64,000 nucleotides of DNA, taken from positions 28,768,001 to 28,832,000 of the forward strand of contig CM069148.1 of assembly GCA_035221665.1 (NCBI GenBank), read 5' to 3'. The translations under genes and the position numbers were made by a program. The notes beneath the pieces were generated by a model, which made no database searches, was not told the origin of the DNA, and was given only the letters and a program-made list of their open reading frames with translations. Shown one piece after another: positions 6,782 through 56,995 of this stretch. The DNA comes from Okamejei kenojei. Its lineage: Eukaryota. Numbering within the stretch: the first letter of the stretch is position 1; the number at the start of each line of letters is the position of its first letter.

Positions 6782-8578
6782 TGGTAAGATGAAGATCTCT
6801 TCATGACATGAGTTGTAACAATTGACTTAAAATCATTTAAAGCTCCCATATGCTCCATATTACTAAACCACTTGCATAAACTGCTCCAAATCTGCTCTCT
6901 ACATCAGCCACGGTTTCTTGTATTGTTCCTCATATATTTGTTTCCAAAATTGTGCCTGTTATCAAACTTTGATATCGATCCTCTTGCATTTATCTCCAAG
7001 CCATTCATAAAAAAATTAATCAGTCAAGTTTCTTTGAATTCATCTTGCCACCTTGTCAAAAAACTTCCATTCTTGCAAATGCTTTCTAAGACCTATCCAT
7101 TCCCATACATTTCTTGCCAAGTTTTCATGATCTAATGTCTCATTCACATGAGACATTCAACTGCGGACAACTAGCTTTGCACTTTCTCTGCATCATGATC
7201 TTTTCAAATAGGGCAATTAAATTGCTCGAGTCTACTTGATTGGTCTACTTTGATTAGCCTAAATCATACTGTGTTATTATTTATGCCGTTAGCTTTAGAT
7301 CTGATCACACCAGCATTTGAGTCAGGAGGTGTTAGTCTAGAGAGGCAAGAGAGTCAAGGGTGTTTTATTGTCATATGTCTTGAAACAGAACTATGAAACT
7401 CTTACTTGTAGCAGCACAACAGGTTTGTAAACACAGTAGTCCATCAATAATATAATAAACAAACAAAATGTTTTAATAAATTTAACAAAAAATTCAGTTT
7501 ATCATCCCCCTGTTTCTGGAGTAGACACAAAATATATAATTCATGAAGAAAGGTTTCGACCCAAAACAACACCTATTCCTTTTTTCGAGAGATGCTGCCT
7601 GACCCACTGAGTTACTCCAGCATTTTGTGTTTATCTTCGGTGTAAACCAGCATCTGCCTTCCGACACATTTTGTCTCTTTCTGAAGTACTTCATTTATAG
7701 AACATAGAACAGTACAGCACAGGAACAGGCCCTGTGGCCCACAATGTCTGGTGCATTTCTATGATATGTTTATGAATATCCTTAAGGTTGGGAAGGTACT
7801 ATATAAATTGAAGGTGTTTGTGACTCCAGGTGGAACGGAAGAAGGAAAAGTTGTATTCCTCAAAATGTGCCGTGGGCAAATTCAGGAACCACTCTGTGCA
7901 TTCCAATATGCTGGTGCTGTACCTTATCACTGACAAGCACAAGGCAGATTTAAATTTCAGAGTTTGCCCTCAACTCAACTGGGACTGGCTGATCTCTGAT
8001 TTCCCTACTTACCCCCTTCTTCCTTCTATAGGAAACACAAAGCAACATTCAATTCTTTACCAAAATTATCCTTCCATGAATTTTTGGAAAATTACAAACT
8101 TGCACTGTTACTGCCCCACCTCCTGCCTTGTGTTATGTGATTTAAGTGATTTGTTAACCTCTCCATGCTTTGTTTTGGAATTATTTCTAATAGTTGTTTT
8201 ATCTTGAACAGTTATCTTTACCGTCGCTCTTCCATAACTTCTTCAGATGTTTTGTCAAACCATAAAAAGCTCCAGTACAGATTCAGGCCTTTAAGCCCAT
8301 CAGATCAGCATTGACTATTAATCACCTCGAGTCTCATTTTCTAAAATCTCATTTTCACTTTAATCTCTAAAGAAATGGGAATAAAATAAGAATTCCACTC
8401 ATTCCACTCTCAAGAATAAAATGACTTTCTCTGTTTCTAAGTTATCCTACCTACCATTAGAGTTACACAGCACTGAAAGAGGCCTTTCGGGCCACTGTGT
8501 CCCTTCCAACCATCAAGTGCCCATTATACTAATTCCATTCACCAAGAGCCTTATGCCTCTCCTAAGGTGCAGCAAATG

Positions 8579-9899: not shown

Positions 9900-10031
9900 T
9901 GATCTTGACAAAGACTTTTGGAATAACAATGACAGCACAGTACAAAAGAAATGGAGTTCCTACCCTCCAAAGGAGTTCATTCTAAACATTTCGCCTTATG
10001 CACCTTATGGTGACCCTCGTCTTTCACTCAA
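9900..10031 (+). CDS. SYT7: Synaptotagmin-7 alternative linker exon (44 aa, 'beta' insert)
   Basis: Polypyrimidine tract + TAG acceptor at 9897-9899; GTGAGT donor at 10032. Length 132 nt, phase 2/2. Translates (N)DLDKDFWNNNDSTVQKKWSSYPPKEFILNISPYAPYGDPRLSL, nearly identical to the recalled mammalian Syt7 beta insert. Confidence 0.95.
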
Positions 10032-10252: not shown

Positions 10253-10313
10253 TGTGGGAGAGCAGAGGGTTGCTCGTTGAGGCCTGTACCCATATCCTCT
10301 CAATTACACTGTG
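10253..10313 (+). other. SYT7: Candidate stop-codon-containing SYT7 cassette exon
   Basis: Acceptor CCTGAT..CTTCCTTCCCAG. Phase-2 reading gives (N)VGEQRVAR*, TGA at 10278-10280. Donor candidate GTG|GTAAAA at 10314; the 3' boundary is uncertain. Confidence 0.5.
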
Positions 10314-10510
10314 GTAAAAAAAAAATGCTGCTTATAAAAATGGCTGTCTGATGGAATTTCTTTGGCTGCTTAATCCCCTTTTTGCTGTTTTATTTTTGAG
10401 CTTTGGAAGAAAGGTGTGCACTGATGTGCTTTAGCGGCAGATCTGATTTACTCCGATCTTCTACTAGGGCTGACTCATTCTCTGTCCACTCTGCTTCCTG
10501 TCCGTACTAG

Positions 10511-10714
10511 TGGCTCTCTCATGTCCGGTAACAAAGCTCCAGTAGCTGAAAAAGAAACACGCACGGCCGAGAAGCAAACCCGCAGCAACAGCATGAAGAG
10601 CAGTGGATCTTCCAACAGTAATCGGGGTGAAGCTGCCAATGGGAAGGTTGGGAAAGGTGGGCGATGGTACACAGTGCAGAGTCTCCTAGCGTCGGGCAAG
10701 CTCAACCAAGCTAA
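10511..10714 (+). CDS. SYT7: Synaptotagmin-7 alternative linker exon (68 aa)
   Basis: CTGAC branch point at ~10470, pyrimidine tract, TAG acceptor, GTGAGT donor at 10715. Length 204 nt, phase 2/2. Translates (N)GSLMSGNKAPV...GKVGKGGRWYTVQSLLASGKLNQA; both ends match the recalled mammalian exon NGTLLSGAKV...GRGRWRMVQSHLAAGKLNLS. Confidence 0.9.
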
Positions 10715-23010: not shown

Positions 23011-23373
23011 CTTGGATGAGCCATCTTTGTCAGCAGCCTCCACGCTAGAACACATATCCACTCCGCCAGGGGACCAACCGTCGAAATGCCCACGACCTCG
23101 GACGCTGCAGAGGCAGCAGAGCCTCCAGCAGCCATTGCAGCAGCATAGACCTACCCACCACCAGCCTGCCACCAGCCAGAGCCTCGGGCAGCTTCAGTTC
23201 CAGCAGCAGACAACCTCGGGCAGCCGGTCTCCCTACAGAGCCCAGCAAAGGGCGGGCTGTACAGCAAGCACGCGCAGTCGCACGGCAGGCGGACGCAGCC
23301 GTTCCAATCCCGGGAGCTGGGACTACGTCATGGGACAGCTCCGTAATCGAGGGTTAGATATGAAGTCTTTCCT
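23011..23373 (+). CDS. SYT7: Synaptotagmin-7 alternative linker exon (121 aa, 'gamma' insert)
   Basis: Long pyrimidine tract + TAG acceptor at 23008-23010; GTAAGT donor at 23374. Length 363 nt, phase 2/2. Translates LDEPSLSAASTLE...KCPRPRTLQRQQSLQQPL...GGRSRSNPGSWDYVMGQLRNRGLDMKSFL, matching the recalled Syt7 gamma insert. Confidence 0.95.
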
Positions 23374-31900: not shown

Positions 31901-33409
31901 ATATTTTGTATTTGCCTTAATAATTTAATTTTAAAGTCGACAGAGTTGCTAACCCGGTCTGATTATGAATCTTTTTCATGAATGTTGTGAAAGTTGCATC
32001 TCTTTCAGCGATACCTGGCGATAGCTATAATTTATAACATTTCTCTCCTGTGCTCTCAAGTGTGCAAGCAAATTTGTACAACCAGTGAACATAATGAACA
32101 GTGAATGAGTGTGCAAAAACAGTTTGTTGAATCCTTTGCCACATCAAATTTTGGTCTCTGATTTTTTTACCAAGATTAACTTCCCATGTAATAGTTCTTT
32201 GACCTGATTTCCATCTGGGCTTTGATTTTTTTTTTTAACAGAAGTTCCCTAGTAAGTTGTAAATAAATTGACTTAAGATGGGCTTCCCTGATAACTCAGT
32301 TAAAAAGACCACTACCGAGTTTTAATCTGAGTCATACAGATCAGGAGGGTCCCCCCCATTCCTTCCCCCGGCGGATCTCAGCTTTTGATCTCCAATTTGC
32401 CTCAGCACCCTTAGGCTACCAAAAGGAAAATTAATATTGGGTTCATGCTTATGAACTCTAGTGTGCTGTAAAGTGTGTGCGTGTGCAGGGACAGGATCAG
32501 ACTTAACTGCAGTGCACCCCACACCCCGAGCATTTGCCATCCACAATCACACTTGGACACTTGAATGAGGTGTATGGCAGACACCTGTGGGACGGGATGT
32601 TGTCAGCACCTGGAAGGGGAAATGAAGATAACATTAAGAGAGTTTAAGATCTGAAACTGAAGAATGGTCCACATTATGCATCCTGGTGACATTAATCAGA
32701 GGTCAAACATCAAGGTTTTTGGGAGCTGAAATTCAATAAGTTTTATTATCGATTCTGTGCATTCCAAATGTTTTATACATTGTCTTTATTTTTTAGTTGC
32801 AATCTATCTCTAACATGCAATTTATTCTTTTGCAACTTAAACAAACAAGATATATGAGACAGACAGACTTTTCGACTGTGTGGAGCATCACAGCTGAGTC
32901 CAATCCTGTCCTCGACTCACCTTGACCCAATCACACTTTCCAGCAGGAGTTATTGGATAACAACCAAGCAGGAACCTTCCTTAGCTCAAGGTACTGAGGC
33001 CTATTGTAGTGTCCTTACTAATATCCCTGCTGAGACCAGAACCCTTTTTGTTTCAAATTTGAGAGAACCTTCGTTTGCAGTCTCAGAACAAATCCATTTG
33101 AAATAACAATGAATGAGCTTTTAATTTTCTCACTTCATGCATCTGAAAATGCACTGTTCCTTTTTTTGTAACTGAATCTAAAAGGGATCTACACATTCCT
33201 TCAAACTTATTTTCATGGCATGCACACTTATCTCCAACTTCCCTCTTTCCCATATCGTCCATTTGCATTGTAACCCTAATTCCAAACTAATCCCCTTTGG
33301 TACAGTTATGTCCAAACCAGAGTTTTAGCTCTGCCTGTTGTATATTGGAATCTTTCTGTCTGACCTACCTTTCTCTCCCTGCCCTATTCCTCTGAACGGG
33401 TTTCCTCAG

Positions 33410-33532
33410 TGAAGGCCGGATGGTGGTCCTGTCCCTGGTTATGGGTCTGACAGAACAGGATGACTTTGCAAATATCCCTGATCTACACACCAGCAACAGC
33501 CAACAAATCCAAGGCACGCAGTCAGACAAAAG
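33410..33532 (+). CDS. SYT7: Synaptotagmin-7 alternative linker exon (41 aa)
   Basis: CAG acceptor at 33407-33409; AG|GTATGA donor at 33533. Length 123 nt, phase 2/2. Translates EGRMVVLSLVMGLTEQDDFANIPDLHTSNSQQIQGTQSDK(R), versus recalled mammalian EGRMVVLSLVLGLSEQDDFANIPDL. Not in the ORF track. Confidence 0.94.
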
Positions 33533-35811: not shown

Positions 35812-38700
35812 AACAATATGTTTTACTAGGGTGAGATCAGGAAATTCACAACAACCGAATTTTCATTGTTGAAGCAAGAAACAAAATGAAGAGAGGGGAA
35901 TGTGAGGGCCATTTTACAGCTTTCCAAACTAGCCAGGACAGCGAGAGCAATTTGACTGGAAAATGGAACACAATTTGTGCACTGTGTACCATAAGCATGT
36001 TGTTATTTTGACTGCCCAAGTGTGAGGAACAACATCTTCGAACGTCACTGTGAAGAGGGAGGATCAGATGTTATATCGGAACACCACCTATTTTCAATTG
36101 TTTTGAATCGCAGCCTTTTAATGCCAATTTTCCATGATTTCAGCTAGCAGCACTTTAACTGAACAGACTGTAAGGCAAGAGTCAGGGATGTTAACAGCCA
36201 CTAGCTTAAACATTATATTGCCACAATTTCTTTAAGAGACAATATTGCTTGCATGAATGAACCCGAGTACCTCAAGTAACTGCCAATTGTTCCTGTGTGA
36301 CCAATCTTTTTTCTTCTGTTAAATAATCTCCCTTTTATCAGCAATAAAGCACTGACAATGCTCCATAAAATTATACTGTAAATTTGTGATCTGTATTGCA
36401 TATTTTTACATTATAGATCACAAATAGGAAAGTTATTGCTGGTACTCTGTGAAATACCGATTCTTGTACAGAAATGAGTTGAAGACCTGTATCTAAATAG
36501 TAATCAAAGGGATCCAGTGGAAATAAAAATCATAATTACTCATTAATTGCTGAGCCATATAAATATTATACATCACTTCACAATCTTCATAAAATTATAC
36601 ATTTTTAATGAGATCTATAATTTTGTGATTGCGAACTGCATAGCTTCTGGACATCAAGCAGTGAACTAATCTGGCCGTCATTTTTCACGGCCAACCCCAC
36701 TAAAAGTAACATTCAGCATTTAAAAGGGAGTGAATACGAAATATAAATTTTCATTGAAGCTTCTCAATCACATCGTCAATTTTTTGCTAATAACTGATTA
36801 ATCAAGAACCTCCAATGATTTCCCTTTCCCAGCAAACATAAAAAATACTTAAATCTCATTTCAAAACATTTTACATTGAAGATAAGGATATTATCAACCG
36901 GACTCACCTTTTTAAAAATAAGTTGTTATCGGAAATTATGTTGTGTAAATAAGGAGTATCGCCAATTCTATTAAATTGTCCATTCCCTCCACAGATGCTG
37001 CCTGACTTGCTGAGTTCCTCCTGCACTTTGTGTTATACTCATTGCCTCACTATCAGCAGCCAAAACGTAGTTGACTCAAACACATTCCCTGTCAAATGTT
37101 ACAAACAGCCCGTTGCATTTTCCTATTAAATGTAAAAGCTTATTTTTTAAAGATAAAATAATACAACTCTCAGCTGGGTTGTCATTTTAATACCTGATTG
37201 TTCTTGCATTTTGATAAATTGCCTGCTGTGCTTCCATTTTCCTTAATGGAATAGCACAGAAGTAAATTTAATGTGTTCTTTAAAAAATTGCCTCTGGCAC
37301 TCATCTTCCCAATAACAATTTTGTTTTCTTTTTCCAAAATATCATGTTAAATGTTGTGTGGGTTCAGCGAGAAATATGCGAAGACTATGTCTGTTCATCC
37401 CGCAGATTTATTTTATAAATTCTCCATAAATATTTAAAATGTGAAAATGCTTTGGTAAGCATCTCCCATAGTAAATACAACCCCCAGCCGGCAGAGTTAT
37501 TGTGGTACCCACACTGTTGAGTGCATATAATTGCAGTATGGCAAGCATGTACTGTAAATACAAATATCATTTATAAAATATGTTCAAATGAAACCAATAT
37601 AGGAATCAAATCATGCTCACACAATCTGCTCCATCCATCAATTATTTAGTGAGTTGACATGTTAAAAATGTTGTGAGTAGAAGCTCATATTTAACTATAC
37701 CGTAGAAACAAGGAACTGCAGATGCTGGTTTGCAAAGAAAGACACAAAGTGTTGGAATAATTCAGCAGGTCACTGGGGAACATGGATAGGTGACGTTTTG
37801 GTCGGGAGACTTCTATAACTATACTATTTGTTTTCTGTAACTTTTTACTTCATGTTCTTTCCAATCAACAGCCTACTGCATCTTTCCATTATATTTGAGT
37901 TTTTTTTAAATAATCCAACTCCACCCAACTCAGCCCAAGTATCTGAATGAGCCTTGAAACGTTCATGACTTGGCCACAACTTGCTGGTGTCATTCTGGGC
38001 TCCCTCGAACATTAGCCATTTCCATACACTGACCCATCTTCTTCCTTACATCTTGGCGTCTTGACTCAATTTCCTTTGCCGTACCAACCTTCGAAAAGTG
38101 TGTTCACTGTTTCCTGGGGTGGGGGGGGGGGGGATCTTTCTCTGGCGCCCACAAAGGTCCTTGACATGCTGAGCTAAGGACAATTATTAATCATTTATGT
38201 TGCATGACGTACCAACATCGTAACTGCCAGCATACAAGTAATAATTTCAGCTAAATTGTCTTGGGTAATAAAAATAATGAGAGATTTGCACTTTTGTAAA
38301 ACTTATGGAGCCTAACAAACTTCATTCTGTTTCAGTCCATTTACCCCCAAGGTATCAAGACTTGTGCACTAACACTCCAGCCAATTATTTTTCTAATTCT
38401 GCTCCTGTTCCTCTCATTCCTTCCAGACATGAAGATCAATGACCCTGTATCAATATTGTCCCTATTGCTTTCATGCACACGGCAAACGCTCCACAGCTCA
38501 GCTTGTCTCTTATCAAGGTTTACACTTGTAGTACATTTTGCATAATAGACTCTCCCCCGTGTTTCTATTCTTGAACATTATATTATCTTTGATTTAAATG
38601 CACAGAATTATTAAGTATCATGAGTGTTTAATTGTTATAAGCAGCAGAACAATGACATTCTCACTTGCTGCAGCTTTGCAAGCCCATAAACACAATAACA

Positions 38701-45809: not shown

Positions 45810-48800
45810 CTTATCCATGTTCTCCAGAGATGCTGCCTGACCCACTGAGTTACTCCAGTACTTTGTGTTCTTTTGATGAAGAGAGGAACCATCATTTGAA
45901 GGTTTAACTAGCCATTTCTTCACAGACCAGTGTTGAGTGTCTCATGTGGTGTGTTTCTATGACTTCATTATGAAATGTTGCTTCTGGCAAACTTACAAAT
46001 AATAAAAGCAGTTTGGACTATGGTGGACTATGTATGTGAGTGTTCAACTCAAGGACTGCACTTCCTGAACATTTAGTTTTGGAATGCTTTCGAAAGTTTG
46101 AGGTTGTAAAAATGCACAGTACAAATATTCATTTTTCTTCTCACTAATTTTGCAAAACTAAGAAGAAAACTTGAGAGAGACCCAATACCAAGTTTTCATT
46201 GTGACTACAAGAGTAACATAAAATATATTAGAGCAGCTTTGCCCTGTGCTGTAAGTAGGGTCTACTATTCTGTGTATGTACAATAAATCCACATATCCTT
46301 TATGTAGGACATGCTGGTTACTTCCCTGAAACATCTCAATTCCTTGCGCTGCTTTGGAATTTAAGACACCTCTAAGAAGGAGAATCACGTGTTATATTGT
46401 CGTGTTTAAAGACAATGGAAGAATGAATTTCTTAATGAGCCCGTACCAGCAATATACACGAATGAATATAACAATCCTAAACATTAAATAAACTACTTTA
46501 CATAATACTAGTACAAATAAAATGTTTATACGCTATATAACTATGACTGAATTTCTTTAGTCATTATCCATCTTGAAATGATAACAATGGATTTTGGAGT
46601 TCTCTCAACAATTTGAAAGTATAGCTTTAAGAGCCTTTATCAAAACCAAAGAATGCAAAGCAGCAAATACACGCAAATAAAATGTAATTGCTCAGATTTT
46701 GTGGATCAGACATTGGGGTTCCTGAGCCAGAGAGTAAATATTCCTGCCTGTTGTCATAAATTTTCATAGATGTCAGTGAGAGTACAATTTGCAGTATGGT
46801 AGAGTTGCACTTCACAGATATACAGTCCCACTGCAGATGATTGGACTGTTTCTTCCTTTATGGCAGACTGCCACAAAATCCATGAATCTTGGTGCATGGA
46901 ATTTACAAAATAGCTAGTACATAGAATGGAGTACGTGTCCTTAAACATTTTATGGTTTATGGCATCTTAACATCTTGTTTTATTGCCTTGTAATATTTTT
47001 TACCGTTTATATATTCCTTCATACTGCTTGAATTGTGTCCCAAGTATTTGAGCAACATATATATATTGTTTTGTATATGTTTCATATCAGAATTTTAATT
47101 AATATATTATGTAAGAATTTTTGCTTCTGGTTATCCAGAATACAATGCAAGAGTAATTGTGTGTGCCTTTGTTAGAACCATATACACTGATGATACAGAC
47201 ATTTAGTGACTCTTCGGAGGTACTGTTTCTTTCTGTGTCGACTATACAGTTGTAAATGCGGCCCGTTCTTCATTTACACAGCAAATTGATTGTCAAATAT
47301 TTATGGAGCATAGGCAGGAGAGCAATGATTTAATTCCAATATAATTTGGGCTGCTCCGATATAAGAATATTGACTATAAGCTGAGACTGATTTTACTGCT
47401 GATTCTATCTACACTTAGAGATTAACAATAAATTATGTTATTCCTCTCTCATTGCGAGGCAACACTGCACGGTGGCTTTATAATGAAGCTTAAATGAAAC
47501 AATCTGCATATACTACATGGAACGTGCTTCTGACCATCCTCACTGTTTGCTCCCAGCAGATTTATGTGATAATTTAAAAATAAGTTAAGGGACAAAGTAT
47601 CCTCTGATTAAATATCTCTGCTAATTATATAGCTTGCAAGCATTTATTTATTATTGAATGATTTCTTTCTTATAGGCTGAGTAATGCTATTAGAATTTTA
47701 AATCCTTTGAATAGCTAAAAAAATGCAGAGGTAATGTGGTGATCTGGCTCCATCCTGTATCTAAATGCAACATTTCCTCCAGGTGTCCTAGGTCAAGGAT
47801 TATGGTATCTGTTCATCCCTCAAGCTGTCTGTAAACCTATATGTTTAATTGTTTTTCAAATCCTGCAAGCAAAATCTTTCTCTCAATCCTGCCTTTTTCC
47901 TTTATTTGTAGCTTCCTCTTCCAGCTGTCCATGTTAATTGTGGTTAAACGTCAGCTGTTCCAGTACTTGCTGCTCCACCTGTCTGTGACTCTTCAGTGTC
48001 TGAAACTCTGCAATTTTGTTTCTCGCTGCAGCCTGTTTCTATTTTTGTACTTTTCTTCCACCCACTCTATCTCCCCCCACACTGTTTAAAAACACTCTGC
48101 TTTGCTTACAGACTGCTTTCTCAGACCCAGAGACTTCATCAACTTAACAGAAGCTGTACGAACCAACATTAAATCCTGTTTACAGCACTAGCCGTGAATA
48201 GTTGCTAATGATTTGATGCTAACGCCTCTTTTCAGTTGCTCTTTGGCTTGACTCTCTTGCCTTCTTTTTCCACTCTTCACTGTGTCTCATCATCATCCTC
48301 TCAATCATCAAACATTGATGAATCCTAATACTGACTAACCTCTGCCTGCCTCCTGTGTTCCCTTCTCTTGTGGCATAACAGAAGCCTGTATGTGTACCTG
48401 TGTGTGTGTGTGTGCGTGTGTGTGCGTACCTATGTGAGTCTTTGTCTGTGTTAATGCCAGAACTTGAGAGTTATTATGCTGACAAAGGATGTCCTCAATC
48501 CTCTGATGGCACGTAGCATGATAGCCACATAAAGGTTCCAAGTAGAACTGCTTCTGACGTATTGGCTGCTTTCTCTCAGAAGGGAATCTGCTAAGAATTT
48601 AACCAAAGTAAGTCGAGAACATTTAAAGGTCTGAAAGCTACATTTCATTGAGCAATTATGCCATAAATTATCTATTTAATTCAAGAAATGTTCAAAAAAT
48701 ATTAAATATAATTTCAAAAAATCCGTCAATCGATTTGTAACTTTGCCGGAAGCAAAATTTCATAATGAGGTCACAGACACACACCAAATGACAAACCCAA

Positions 48801-48921
48801 CTGGTCTGTGAAGCAATGGCTAGTTGAACCTTCAAATGATGGTTCCTCTTTTCCCCAAAAGAACACAAAGTGCTGGAGTAACTCAGCAGGTCAGGCAGCA
48901 TCTCTGGTGACCATGGATAAG
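45810..48921. repeat. ~190-bp inverted repeat pair (45810-46000 / 48733-48921)
   Basis: For example GAGGAACCATCATTTGAAGGTTTAACTAGCCATT versus AATGGCTAGTTGAACCTTCAAATGATGGTTCCTC. The homology extends well beyond the pLTR portion. Confidence 0.9.
48382..48387 (+). other. Candidate 6-nt frame-preserving microexon (AAGCCT)
   Basis: ~145-nt AG-free zone, TACTGACTAAC branch point, pyrimidine tract, CAG acceptor at 48379-48381, GTATGT donor at 48388, then (TG)n. Confidence 0.4.
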
Positions 48922-50314
48922 TGATGTTTCAGCTCGGGACCCTTCATCAGATTTCTTAAGAATTCAGAATTATTTAGTCTGTTGAAGCATCACAAAGCCC
49001 TTCATGTGATCTCACTGAAGTTTTATACTTGTATTAAGGATGTATTCAACACAGCTTGACGTGTGTGAGAAATGAACCCAATCAGGTTATTTTGTGATCA
49101 TTTCTGGGCCTCTTAAAATCCTGTGGGAAATTTGACCCCAGACTTTCTGCAACGGATTTTGTTACCAAAAATAATATTGTTTGACCATTAAACTCCTGTC
49201 AGTCGAGTGAACAAGAGAGGAATTCAAATATTAACATCCAGTATGATTTTCAAACTCAATGGCCTAATGAAAATCATCAGTTCTTGTTTATTGACAGTAC
49301 AACCAGCTTTGACCAACCTTTCCACTGCTGAAACACTCCTGTTTAAAGAACCAAAATTCCACATGCACAACCCGTCAGGGTGATCAGTGGGCTCCTTGCT
49401 CATACTTGACATGGAGCTGTGGACGGCAATAATTCACACAGAATCCGGAGTTCACTTTGAGAACAAACGCTCTTTATTAGACGTTGGCCAACTTGGGGGA
49501 CATTTATCCTTGGGCAGATGTTCATCCAAAGGTGACATTATTCATGTAGTATTTTTTATTTACCTTCCCCAACCCCGTTACCTATGTCCCATTTGCATTG
49601 TGAGAACATAGGATGAGGTAAGTTATTTTTGCCACTCTATGCTCTATCACACTGTGCTACATAAGTCGCATGCGGTTCCACTTTAAACGTGTATGTATAA
49701 TGATCAGTTCCCATCTTGGAGAACATGTACTAGTTGCTGTGCAGTATCCAGGCAGAGTTTCACTCTAGATCAAAGACACAATGTGGGTCAGGCGGCATCT
49801 CTGCAGAACATAGATAGGTGAATTTTTAGGTCGGGTGCCTTCATCAGACCGTTTTGTTCACTTGAAGCTCGGAGAGGGGAGCTGAGGGGGATACTGTCTA
49901 TTTACGACCAGCTTTCCAACTAGCCCTATCAGCCAGCGTCATGAAGTCCCACTGTCTTCCTTTACAGGAACTTTCCTTGTTCCCTCAAAGATCTGTCCTC
50001 AGTGGGCTGACTTTCTGTTTGGATCACGGCACACTCATCACTTGCTCACTGGATGGTGTGGAGGTGAACTTGGGTTCAGAAGTATTACAGGCAACCAGGG
50101 AACCATGTGAGAACTGACCTTGCCATCCATGACCTTATCCATGCAAAGTTTAGAAGGACCCATGCTGATGGCTTCAGTTCTCTCAATTTGCTTCAAATAA
50201 ATTGTCTTATTTAAGTGCCTGAACTGCTAGATGAAGGTCTAGATTGCTCTCTCTATTCTATCATTTGGAATGTTCCAGCAGAGTGATCTCGGCCTAGTTA
50301 GTTTTGCGAAGCAG

Positions 50315-56294: not shown

Positions 56295-56430
56295 GTTGCC
56301 CACTGGAAATAAGCCAGTGAACACCACTCCTGTGCAAGGGCAGGTTTCTCAGGATGATTTGGACAGAAGAACAGAACCTCGCTCCTCAGTCTCAGACTTG
56401 GTTAACTCCCTTACAAGTGAGATGCTAATG
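56295..56430 (+). CDS. SYT7: Synaptotagmin-7 constitutive linker exon preceding the C2A exons
   Basis: TTTGCAG acceptor; ATG|GTGAGT donor. Length 136 nt, phase 2/0. Translates [45 protein letters not shown], versus recalled human [45 protein letters not shown]. Confidence 0.97.
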
Positions 56431-56574: not shown

Positions 56575-56995
56575 ATACACAGCATAAGCTATCTACAGCA
56601 TTACACAGTATCTGCAGTATCTACAGTATTATACCGTATCTGCAGTATATACAGTCTTATACGGTATCTGCAATATATACAGTATTATACTGTATCTGCA
56701 CTATCCACAGTATTATACAGTATCTAATTATACAGTATCTGCAGTATATACAGTCTTACACAGTATCTGCAGTATCTAAAGTATTATACAGTATCTACAA
56801 TATTTTACACTATTATACATTATCTGCAGTATATACACAGTATCTGCAGTATCTAAAGTATTATACAGCATCAACAATATTGCAGTATCTGCAGTATTTT
56901 ACACTATCTACAGTTTTGTACAGTATCTACAGTATTTTACATTACAGCATTATACAGTATCTGCAGTATTTTACACTATCTACAGTATTTTTACA
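56575..56995. repeat. Degenerate tandem repeat of 9-10-nt units (CAGTATCTG / CAGTATTATA)
   Basis: Directly visible; starts ~145 nt after the constitutive exon. Confidence 0.9.

Follow-up and report, generated by a model that had tools for sequence, protein, structure and literature searches.

Does the skate SYT7 gene carry, in the region that encodes its linker, a further exon of only six bases? The candidate, CAG|AAGCCT|GTATGT at positions 48379-48393 (+), had been picked out from the letters alone as a neural microexon within a 64-kb stretch of DNA, which was analysed whole and is here called the window. Our preferred answer, given tentatively, is a cassette microexon of 6 nt, restricted to a lineage, that a minority of transcripts would include, probably in neurons, and that would place Ser-Leu before the exon that begins L-P-T-G. 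The likelihoods that we attach to this and to competing readings are judgements, not computed values.

Gene setting and splice-signal anatomy

An exon map drawn from tblastn and protein matches places the window in the linker region of the skate SYT7 gene, in support of the gene assignment, exons and phases of the original prediction. Among the best 120 of 576 hits for the exon at 56295-56430, the closest are skate and shark synaptotagmin-7 (96% to Amblyraja radiata). The transmembrane exon and an exon ending K-K-A-I lie 5' of the window, whereas the C2 exons are found 3' of it; phase 2 is found at every linker junction. The exons within the window, with boundaries from tblastn, are as follows.

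9900..10031, + strand: SYT7 linker cassette 1
10511..10714, + strand: SYT7 linker cassette 2
23011..23373, + strand: SYT7 linker cassette 3
33410..33532, + strand: SYT7 linker cassette 4 (upstream exon), single-copy in the genome by paralog comparison
56295..56430, + strand: SYT7 constitutive linker exon (downstream exon), starting L-P-T-G

The candidate lies on the sense strand, inside the intron of 22.8 kb that separates cassette 4 from the constitutive exon. Phase 2/2 is the rule for cassettes between the transmembrane segment and C2A, and the candidate obeys it as cassettes 1-4 do; the latter, however, measure 123-363 nt and can be found in annotated proteins of species ranging from skates to mammals, whereas the candidate is present in none. 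Two repeats were also noted in the window: a degenerate tandem array with periods of 9-99 nt just 3' of the constitutive exon (56590-56990), and a very high-copy short repeat at 48850-48950, where contig depth is extreme in each of the four runs. The elements of the candidate are listed below.

48236..48379, + strand: AG-free zone, 144 nt (sequence scan)
48270..48308, + strand: cluster of six YCAY motifs, possible NOVA site (motif scan)
48329..48339, + strand: tandem branch points CTGAC (A48334, -48) and CTAAC (A48338, -44) (motif scan)
48343..48369, + strand: two UGC (-39, -35), then a polypyrimidine tract (motif scan)
48379..48384, + strand: CAG acceptor with AAG tandem (NAGNAG) alternative (sequence)
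48382..48387, + strand: candidate microexon of 6 nt (Ser-Leu would be added), with a 3-nt form at 48385-48387; phase 2/2 (sequence only)
48388..48393, + strand: donor GTATGT (sequence)
48399..48427, + strand: (TG)n tract, possible TDP-43 site (sequence)
48434..48439, + strand: second donor GTGAGT (TAT|GTGAGT), with which the exon would be 52 nt long and frameshifting (sequence; absent from the original prediction)

A direct check recovered every predicted motif at its position. The AG-free zone ranks third longest among 3,830 AG-free gaps of the + strand. The branch-point stretch reads TACTGACTAAC and is followed at 48343 by TGCCTGCC; pyrimidine content at -45..-15 is 0.81, and the region from branch point to 3' splice site has a mean unpaired probability of 0.57, a value for this site alone. 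Farther upstream stand CTAAT (48205) and CTAAC (48219). The YCAY motifs start at 48270, 48277, 48287, 48290, 48293, and 48305, that is, six in 45 nt, a density reached by 0.1% of 45-nt windows. The (TG)n tract at 48399, 11 nt below the donor, is the sole run of (TG)6 or more in the 64 kb. The predicted phase 2/2 also holds: both the 6-nt form (Ser-Leu) and the 3-nt form (one residue) keep the frame after each of the four cassettes. The donor begins GTATG as in cassette 4, and the last exon bases are CCT as in cassette 3. Against a microexon, the GTATGT donor is embedded in a GT-rich run, where donors easily arise.

If real, the candidate belongs to a class of microexons that is already known. 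In the accessible text of PMC12871342, the neural microexon model involves a branch point moved to about 45 nt, an extended pyrimidine tract, and UGC, with median branch distances of 45 nt in human and 47 nt in chicken; the 44-48 nt of the candidate match these medians, which counts for the microexon, and its anatomy, as read from the sequence, fits the model. Like SRRM3/SRRM4 microexons (3-27 nt), it is small, flanked by AG and GT, and of 3n length, has a branch point about 45 nt upstream and a long pyrimidine tract with UGC, and is housed in a gene that acts in synaptic vesicle release. The usual position of the SRRM4 UGC is about -7 to -20 from the exon; those of the candidate (-39/-35) lie farther upstream, a point against the microexon. 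In the mechanism that we envisage, U2 would engage the branch point at -44 (or -48), and the long AG-free pyrimidine stretch with its UGC would leave room for SRRM3/4-type activation of an exon probably too small, at six bases, for ordinary exon definition. YCAY is a NOVA motif, and UG tracts are a motif of TDP-43 or CELF proteins; NOVA at the upstream cluster, and TDP-43 or CELF on the UG tract, would tune or dampen inclusion. The predicted effect on the protein is small, two residues, since linker length already varies by hundreds of residues.

Rarity of the signal combination

Controls were drawn from the same chromosome as 60 stretches of 10 kb, taken on both strands (600 kb, giving 1.17 Mb). 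They contained 4,057 sites with YAG, 3-27 nt and a donor, six of which combined an AG-free zone of at least 40 nt, pyrimidine content of at least 0.7, CTRAC, and UGC; requiring an AG-free zone of at least 100 nt as well left one, or about one per Mb. The number of such sites expected in the 22.8-kb intron is 0.12 with a zone of at least 40 nt and 0.02 with one of at least 100 nt. On either strand of the window, the candidate is the only site to pass a filter of branch point, tract, and micro-donor, which favors the microexon. Control sequence (1.2 Mb) held 50 acceptors below a near-consensus branch point; nine had a good tract, and a micro-donor was found in none of these. Similarly, just one of 14 control TG tracts (1.2 Mb) had a pyrimidine-rich acceptor above it, and a branch point as well was found in none.

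Genome-wide, the pattern CAG-N6-GTAWGT-(TG)6 gave 71 matches, with 37 distinct loci other than the candidate. All were examined: CTRAC at -15..-80 was present in 0 of the 37, and the one with a long pyrimidine-rich AG-free zone is a low-complexity repeat. The upstream half, ACTRACTAAC-N1-8-TGCCTGC, occurs 12 times with the candidate included, and none of the 11 other loci has a comparable architecture; a donor follows the next AG within 27 nt at two of them, both with AG-free zones shorter than 35 nt. Judged by the control and genome-wide counts, the architecture of the candidate is exceptional. Its combination of signals exceeds chance, and the rarity of its splice architecture is supported (one site under the strict filter in the 1.17 Mb). 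The control rates flatter the candidate, because the filters were set after the site had been seen.

A rate of about one site per Mb still allows many chance sites in a large genome. Such a site would be neutral intron in which a TG microsatellite, lying below a pyrimidine-rich stretch, furnishes GT donors, with no meaningful splicing. This we consider somewhat unlikely. In a genome of 2.76 Gb the strict rate would translate into chance sites in sense introns on the order of a thousand, and a reader who selects the best site in each window is apt to land on one of them; on the other side, no control set brought together a near-consensus branch point spaced as in microexons, an extended AG-free zone, and an adjacent TG tract.

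Other origins were considered and set aside. The segment 48150-48390 is single-copy, with no second genomic copy at E<=1, which is in keeping with a microexon and discards a transposon origin. A non-coding RNA was dismissed as well, the two Rfam matches being both far under the gathering score. A look-alike at 48146-48159 (TAACAGAAGCTGTA) was dropped, since 48% of random neighboring pairs align equally well and organism D lacks the GT of the look-alike.

Some weaker or unrelated sites were encountered in these scans. On the + strand of control stretch L058 (about 8175-8198; G000:C18:20,008,175), the branch motif CTAATACTGAC occurs as at the candidate, with a 118-nt AG-free zone, a 24-nt segment, and then a GTGATT donor; it may be a real small exon. 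In the window, 32242-32251 (10 nt, GTAAGT donor) and 37255-37261 (7 nt, 79-nt AG-free zone) are micro-exon-like but weaker, and both are frameshifting.

Close relatives and annotated isoforms

Seven runs from four other organisms cover part of the stretch, and single contigs span 47950-48398 in organisms B (two runs, one sample), C, and D (depth 3.3), which are about 97-98% identical to the window over that interval. CAG, AAG, and GTATGT show zero differences in all three. The one change within the exon, 48385 C>T, is found in organism C and would be synonymous if the 6-nt form is read. Around it, 48332 T>C, common to B and D, breaks the first branch point (the second is intact in B, C, and D), and 48344 G>T, likewise common to B and D, removes the first UGC and leaves the second. 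The AG-free zone is trimmed by 11 nt through 48245 G>A in four relatives, the YCAY motifs are altered solely at a Y (48280 C>T), and the (TG)n tract varies in length.

How much does this retention tell? In the core, 48281-48398, pooled substitutions number 4 in 118 nt versus 15 in 331 nt upstream (Fisher p 0.79), and two of the four fall on the first branch point and the first UGC, which weighs against a microexon; in organism C alone the core shows 2 substitutions versus 4.8 expected (p 0.15). When two random changes per lineage were simulated, all features survived in both lineages 39% of the time, so that retention of the AG/GT pair is uninformative. Given these counts and this result, the three relatives neither confirm nor break the exon. 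No constraint beyond background is detectable at the candidate among these three relatives of about 97% identity. In the conservation check suggested for 48200-48440, the splice-site pair is kept in B, C, and D, and extra constraint relative to background is not seen. The candidate differs here from the SRRM3/SRRM4 class, described as highly conserved in vertebrates in the accessible text of PMC12871342. The neutral-intron reading gains from the same data: over 48200-48398 the substitution rate is that of background (12 in 199 nt vs 7 in 250 nt immediately upstream), and B and D each lack one branch point and one UGC. The metagenome contigs, scanned with the constitutive-exon alignment, yielded no relative. 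The adjoining interval 47950-48199 has 4 substitutions in organism C versus 10.1 expected (p 0.03); it contains a pyrimidine-rich acceptor (CAG ending at 48031), after which the phase-2 frame stops after 17 codons.

Another check suggested at the outset was an insertion of one or two residues before LP[AT]G in fish and shark isoforms. We retrieved 374 proteins, including 47 from chondrichthyans, with 25 of the 40 members of one shark cluster left out. The start of the constitutive exon was found in 218, and in 178 it joins directly to a known upstream exon end (the other 40 are mainly genomic reading frames entering from the intron, or odd gene models). An insert of 1-4 residues appears at 0 of these 178 junctions, against the microexon, and in keeping with neutral intron. 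The same junction set contains no trace of an insert in bony-vertebrate proteins, nor does the portion consulted of the curated vertebrate Syt7 alignment of Craxton (PMC2823689, file S18) show a tetrapod insert at the junction. Standard aligners are reported to miss exons under 8-10 nt (PMC7821500); the absence of the candidate from annotations is therefore expected, and weak evidence as far as skates are concerned. The proposed fifth coding cassette has in-frame splice signals, and it gains no backing from the junctions or the substitution counts.

In the same Craxton file, syt7b of Takifugu rubripes has an extra Ser at the junction of cassette 4 and the constitutive exon relative to Tetraodon syt7b, which could reflect a tandem acceptor or a prediction choice. 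Shark isoforms of outlying length (674, 670, and 671 aa) were inspected and rejected, as they differ at the N-terminus or elsewhere and not at the candidate junction. Text searches for Syt7 in mouse and zebrafish microexon supplements (PMC7821500, 8 files; PMC12626424, 12 files; PMC12626420, 12 of 13 files) found none, a further point against the microexon, in tables that may be partial or list exons without gene names. A full-text literature search combining synaptotagmin 7 or Syt7 with microexon returned, in the text accessible to it, nothing beyond work on PTP-delta.

The UG tract, stop-containing forms, and the human SYT7 cryptic exon

The UG tract beside the donor would, by sequence, fit a repressed cryptic exon equally well as a microexon. 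Here the acceptor would be competent and silenced by TDP-43 on the UG tract, the 6-nt or the 52-nt form being spliced only when TDP-43 falls. We regard this as distinctly unlikely, notwithstanding several resemblances to TDP-43 cryptic exons: the candidate is an unannotated exon-like site in the SYT7 linker region, with a UG-rich tract (48399-48427) directly below its donor and 62% UG/GU dinucleotides in 48387-48452. Absence from annotated isoforms (0 of 178 junctions) is also a feature of cryptic exons, and a weak one, as annotation pipelines miss 6-nt exons. Human SYT7 itself contains a cryptic exon that is TDP-43-dependent and flanked by UG-rich sequence, according to the accessible part of bioRxiv 2025.08.28.672801. 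Its interval is reported as chr11:61533124-61551384 (PMC8891019), it is predicted to lead to a stop in the downstream exon (PMC9900763), and it is also recorded in PMC10441763, PMC13343711, and PMC12157639. The forward primer published for it coincides with the end of the K-K-A-I exon, which puts the human cryptic exon downstream of that exon, and the 18-kb interval probably corresponds to the SYT7 linker region. The 52-nt form of the candidate (ending at 48433) shifts the frame and stops inside the constitutive exon, as predicted for the human exon. There is, moreover, a reported precedent in G3BP1 for a small exon both activated by SRRM4 and repressed by TDP-43 (bioRxiv 2025.09.17.676845): exon 2a, a small in-frame exon, is restricted to a lineage and depends on SRRM4. 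The cryptic exon of human SYT7, on the other hand, is out of frame, whereas the 6-nt form of the candidate is in frame. Silencing by TDP-43 is further opposed by the instability of the long form across four species, 52 nt here, 46 in B, about 44 in C, where the second donor is weakened to GTGTGT, and 42 (in frame) in D; a 52/49-nt exon was also rejected as a coding cassette, its length not being frame-stable across species. TG tracts, in addition, are uncommon (14 in 1.2 Mb), so that one should seldom fall next to a strong acceptor by chance.

The stop codons allow one more reading: a poison or terminal exon that has been conserved and corresponds, in skates, to the stop exon behind the C2-less 122-aa Syt7 of mammals. 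Truncated Syt7 isoforms do exist (described in the accessible text of PMC5987875), the 122-aa form was found among the retrieved sequences of several mammals, and reading through the first donor meets a stop at 48452-48454. The peptide so obtained is, however, TG-repeat filler, and the mammalian tail N-P-L-F-L-R-R-stop, which follows cassette 1, has no match here: its phase-2 P-L-F-L-R-R-stop is absent from the candidate and from every acceptor of the window. We hold this to be the least probable of all the readings, and very improbable in itself.

A lineage-restricted microexon remains the reading that we prefer. If spliced, it would extend the cassette repertoire of a much-studied calcium sensor with one that is unannotated, and would exemplify a microexon that cartilaginous fishes either gained or alone retained, its six bases lying between activating and repressing elements. 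The functional stakes are modest, as the protein change amounts to two residues in a long variable linker; what makes it interesting is chiefly the evolution of splicing and the likeness to the human cryptic exon. A bolder conjecture, and a long shot, joins the two: an old splice switch in the SYT7 linker, activated by an SRRM4-type factor and repressed by TDP-43, would be a working microexon in skates and survive as the ALS/FTD cryptic exon in humans. The disease exon would then be what is left of a regulated exon, rather than something that arose by accident in a primate intron.

Elsewhere in the window, between cassettes 1 and 2 (10280-10420), a 117-nt AG-free zone ends in GAG and is followed by a 13-nt segment (10401-10413) and then by GTGTGC, a weak donor. 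This segment would be frameshifting if spliced and, going by its sequence, might be a counterpart of the mammalian stop exon after cassette 1.
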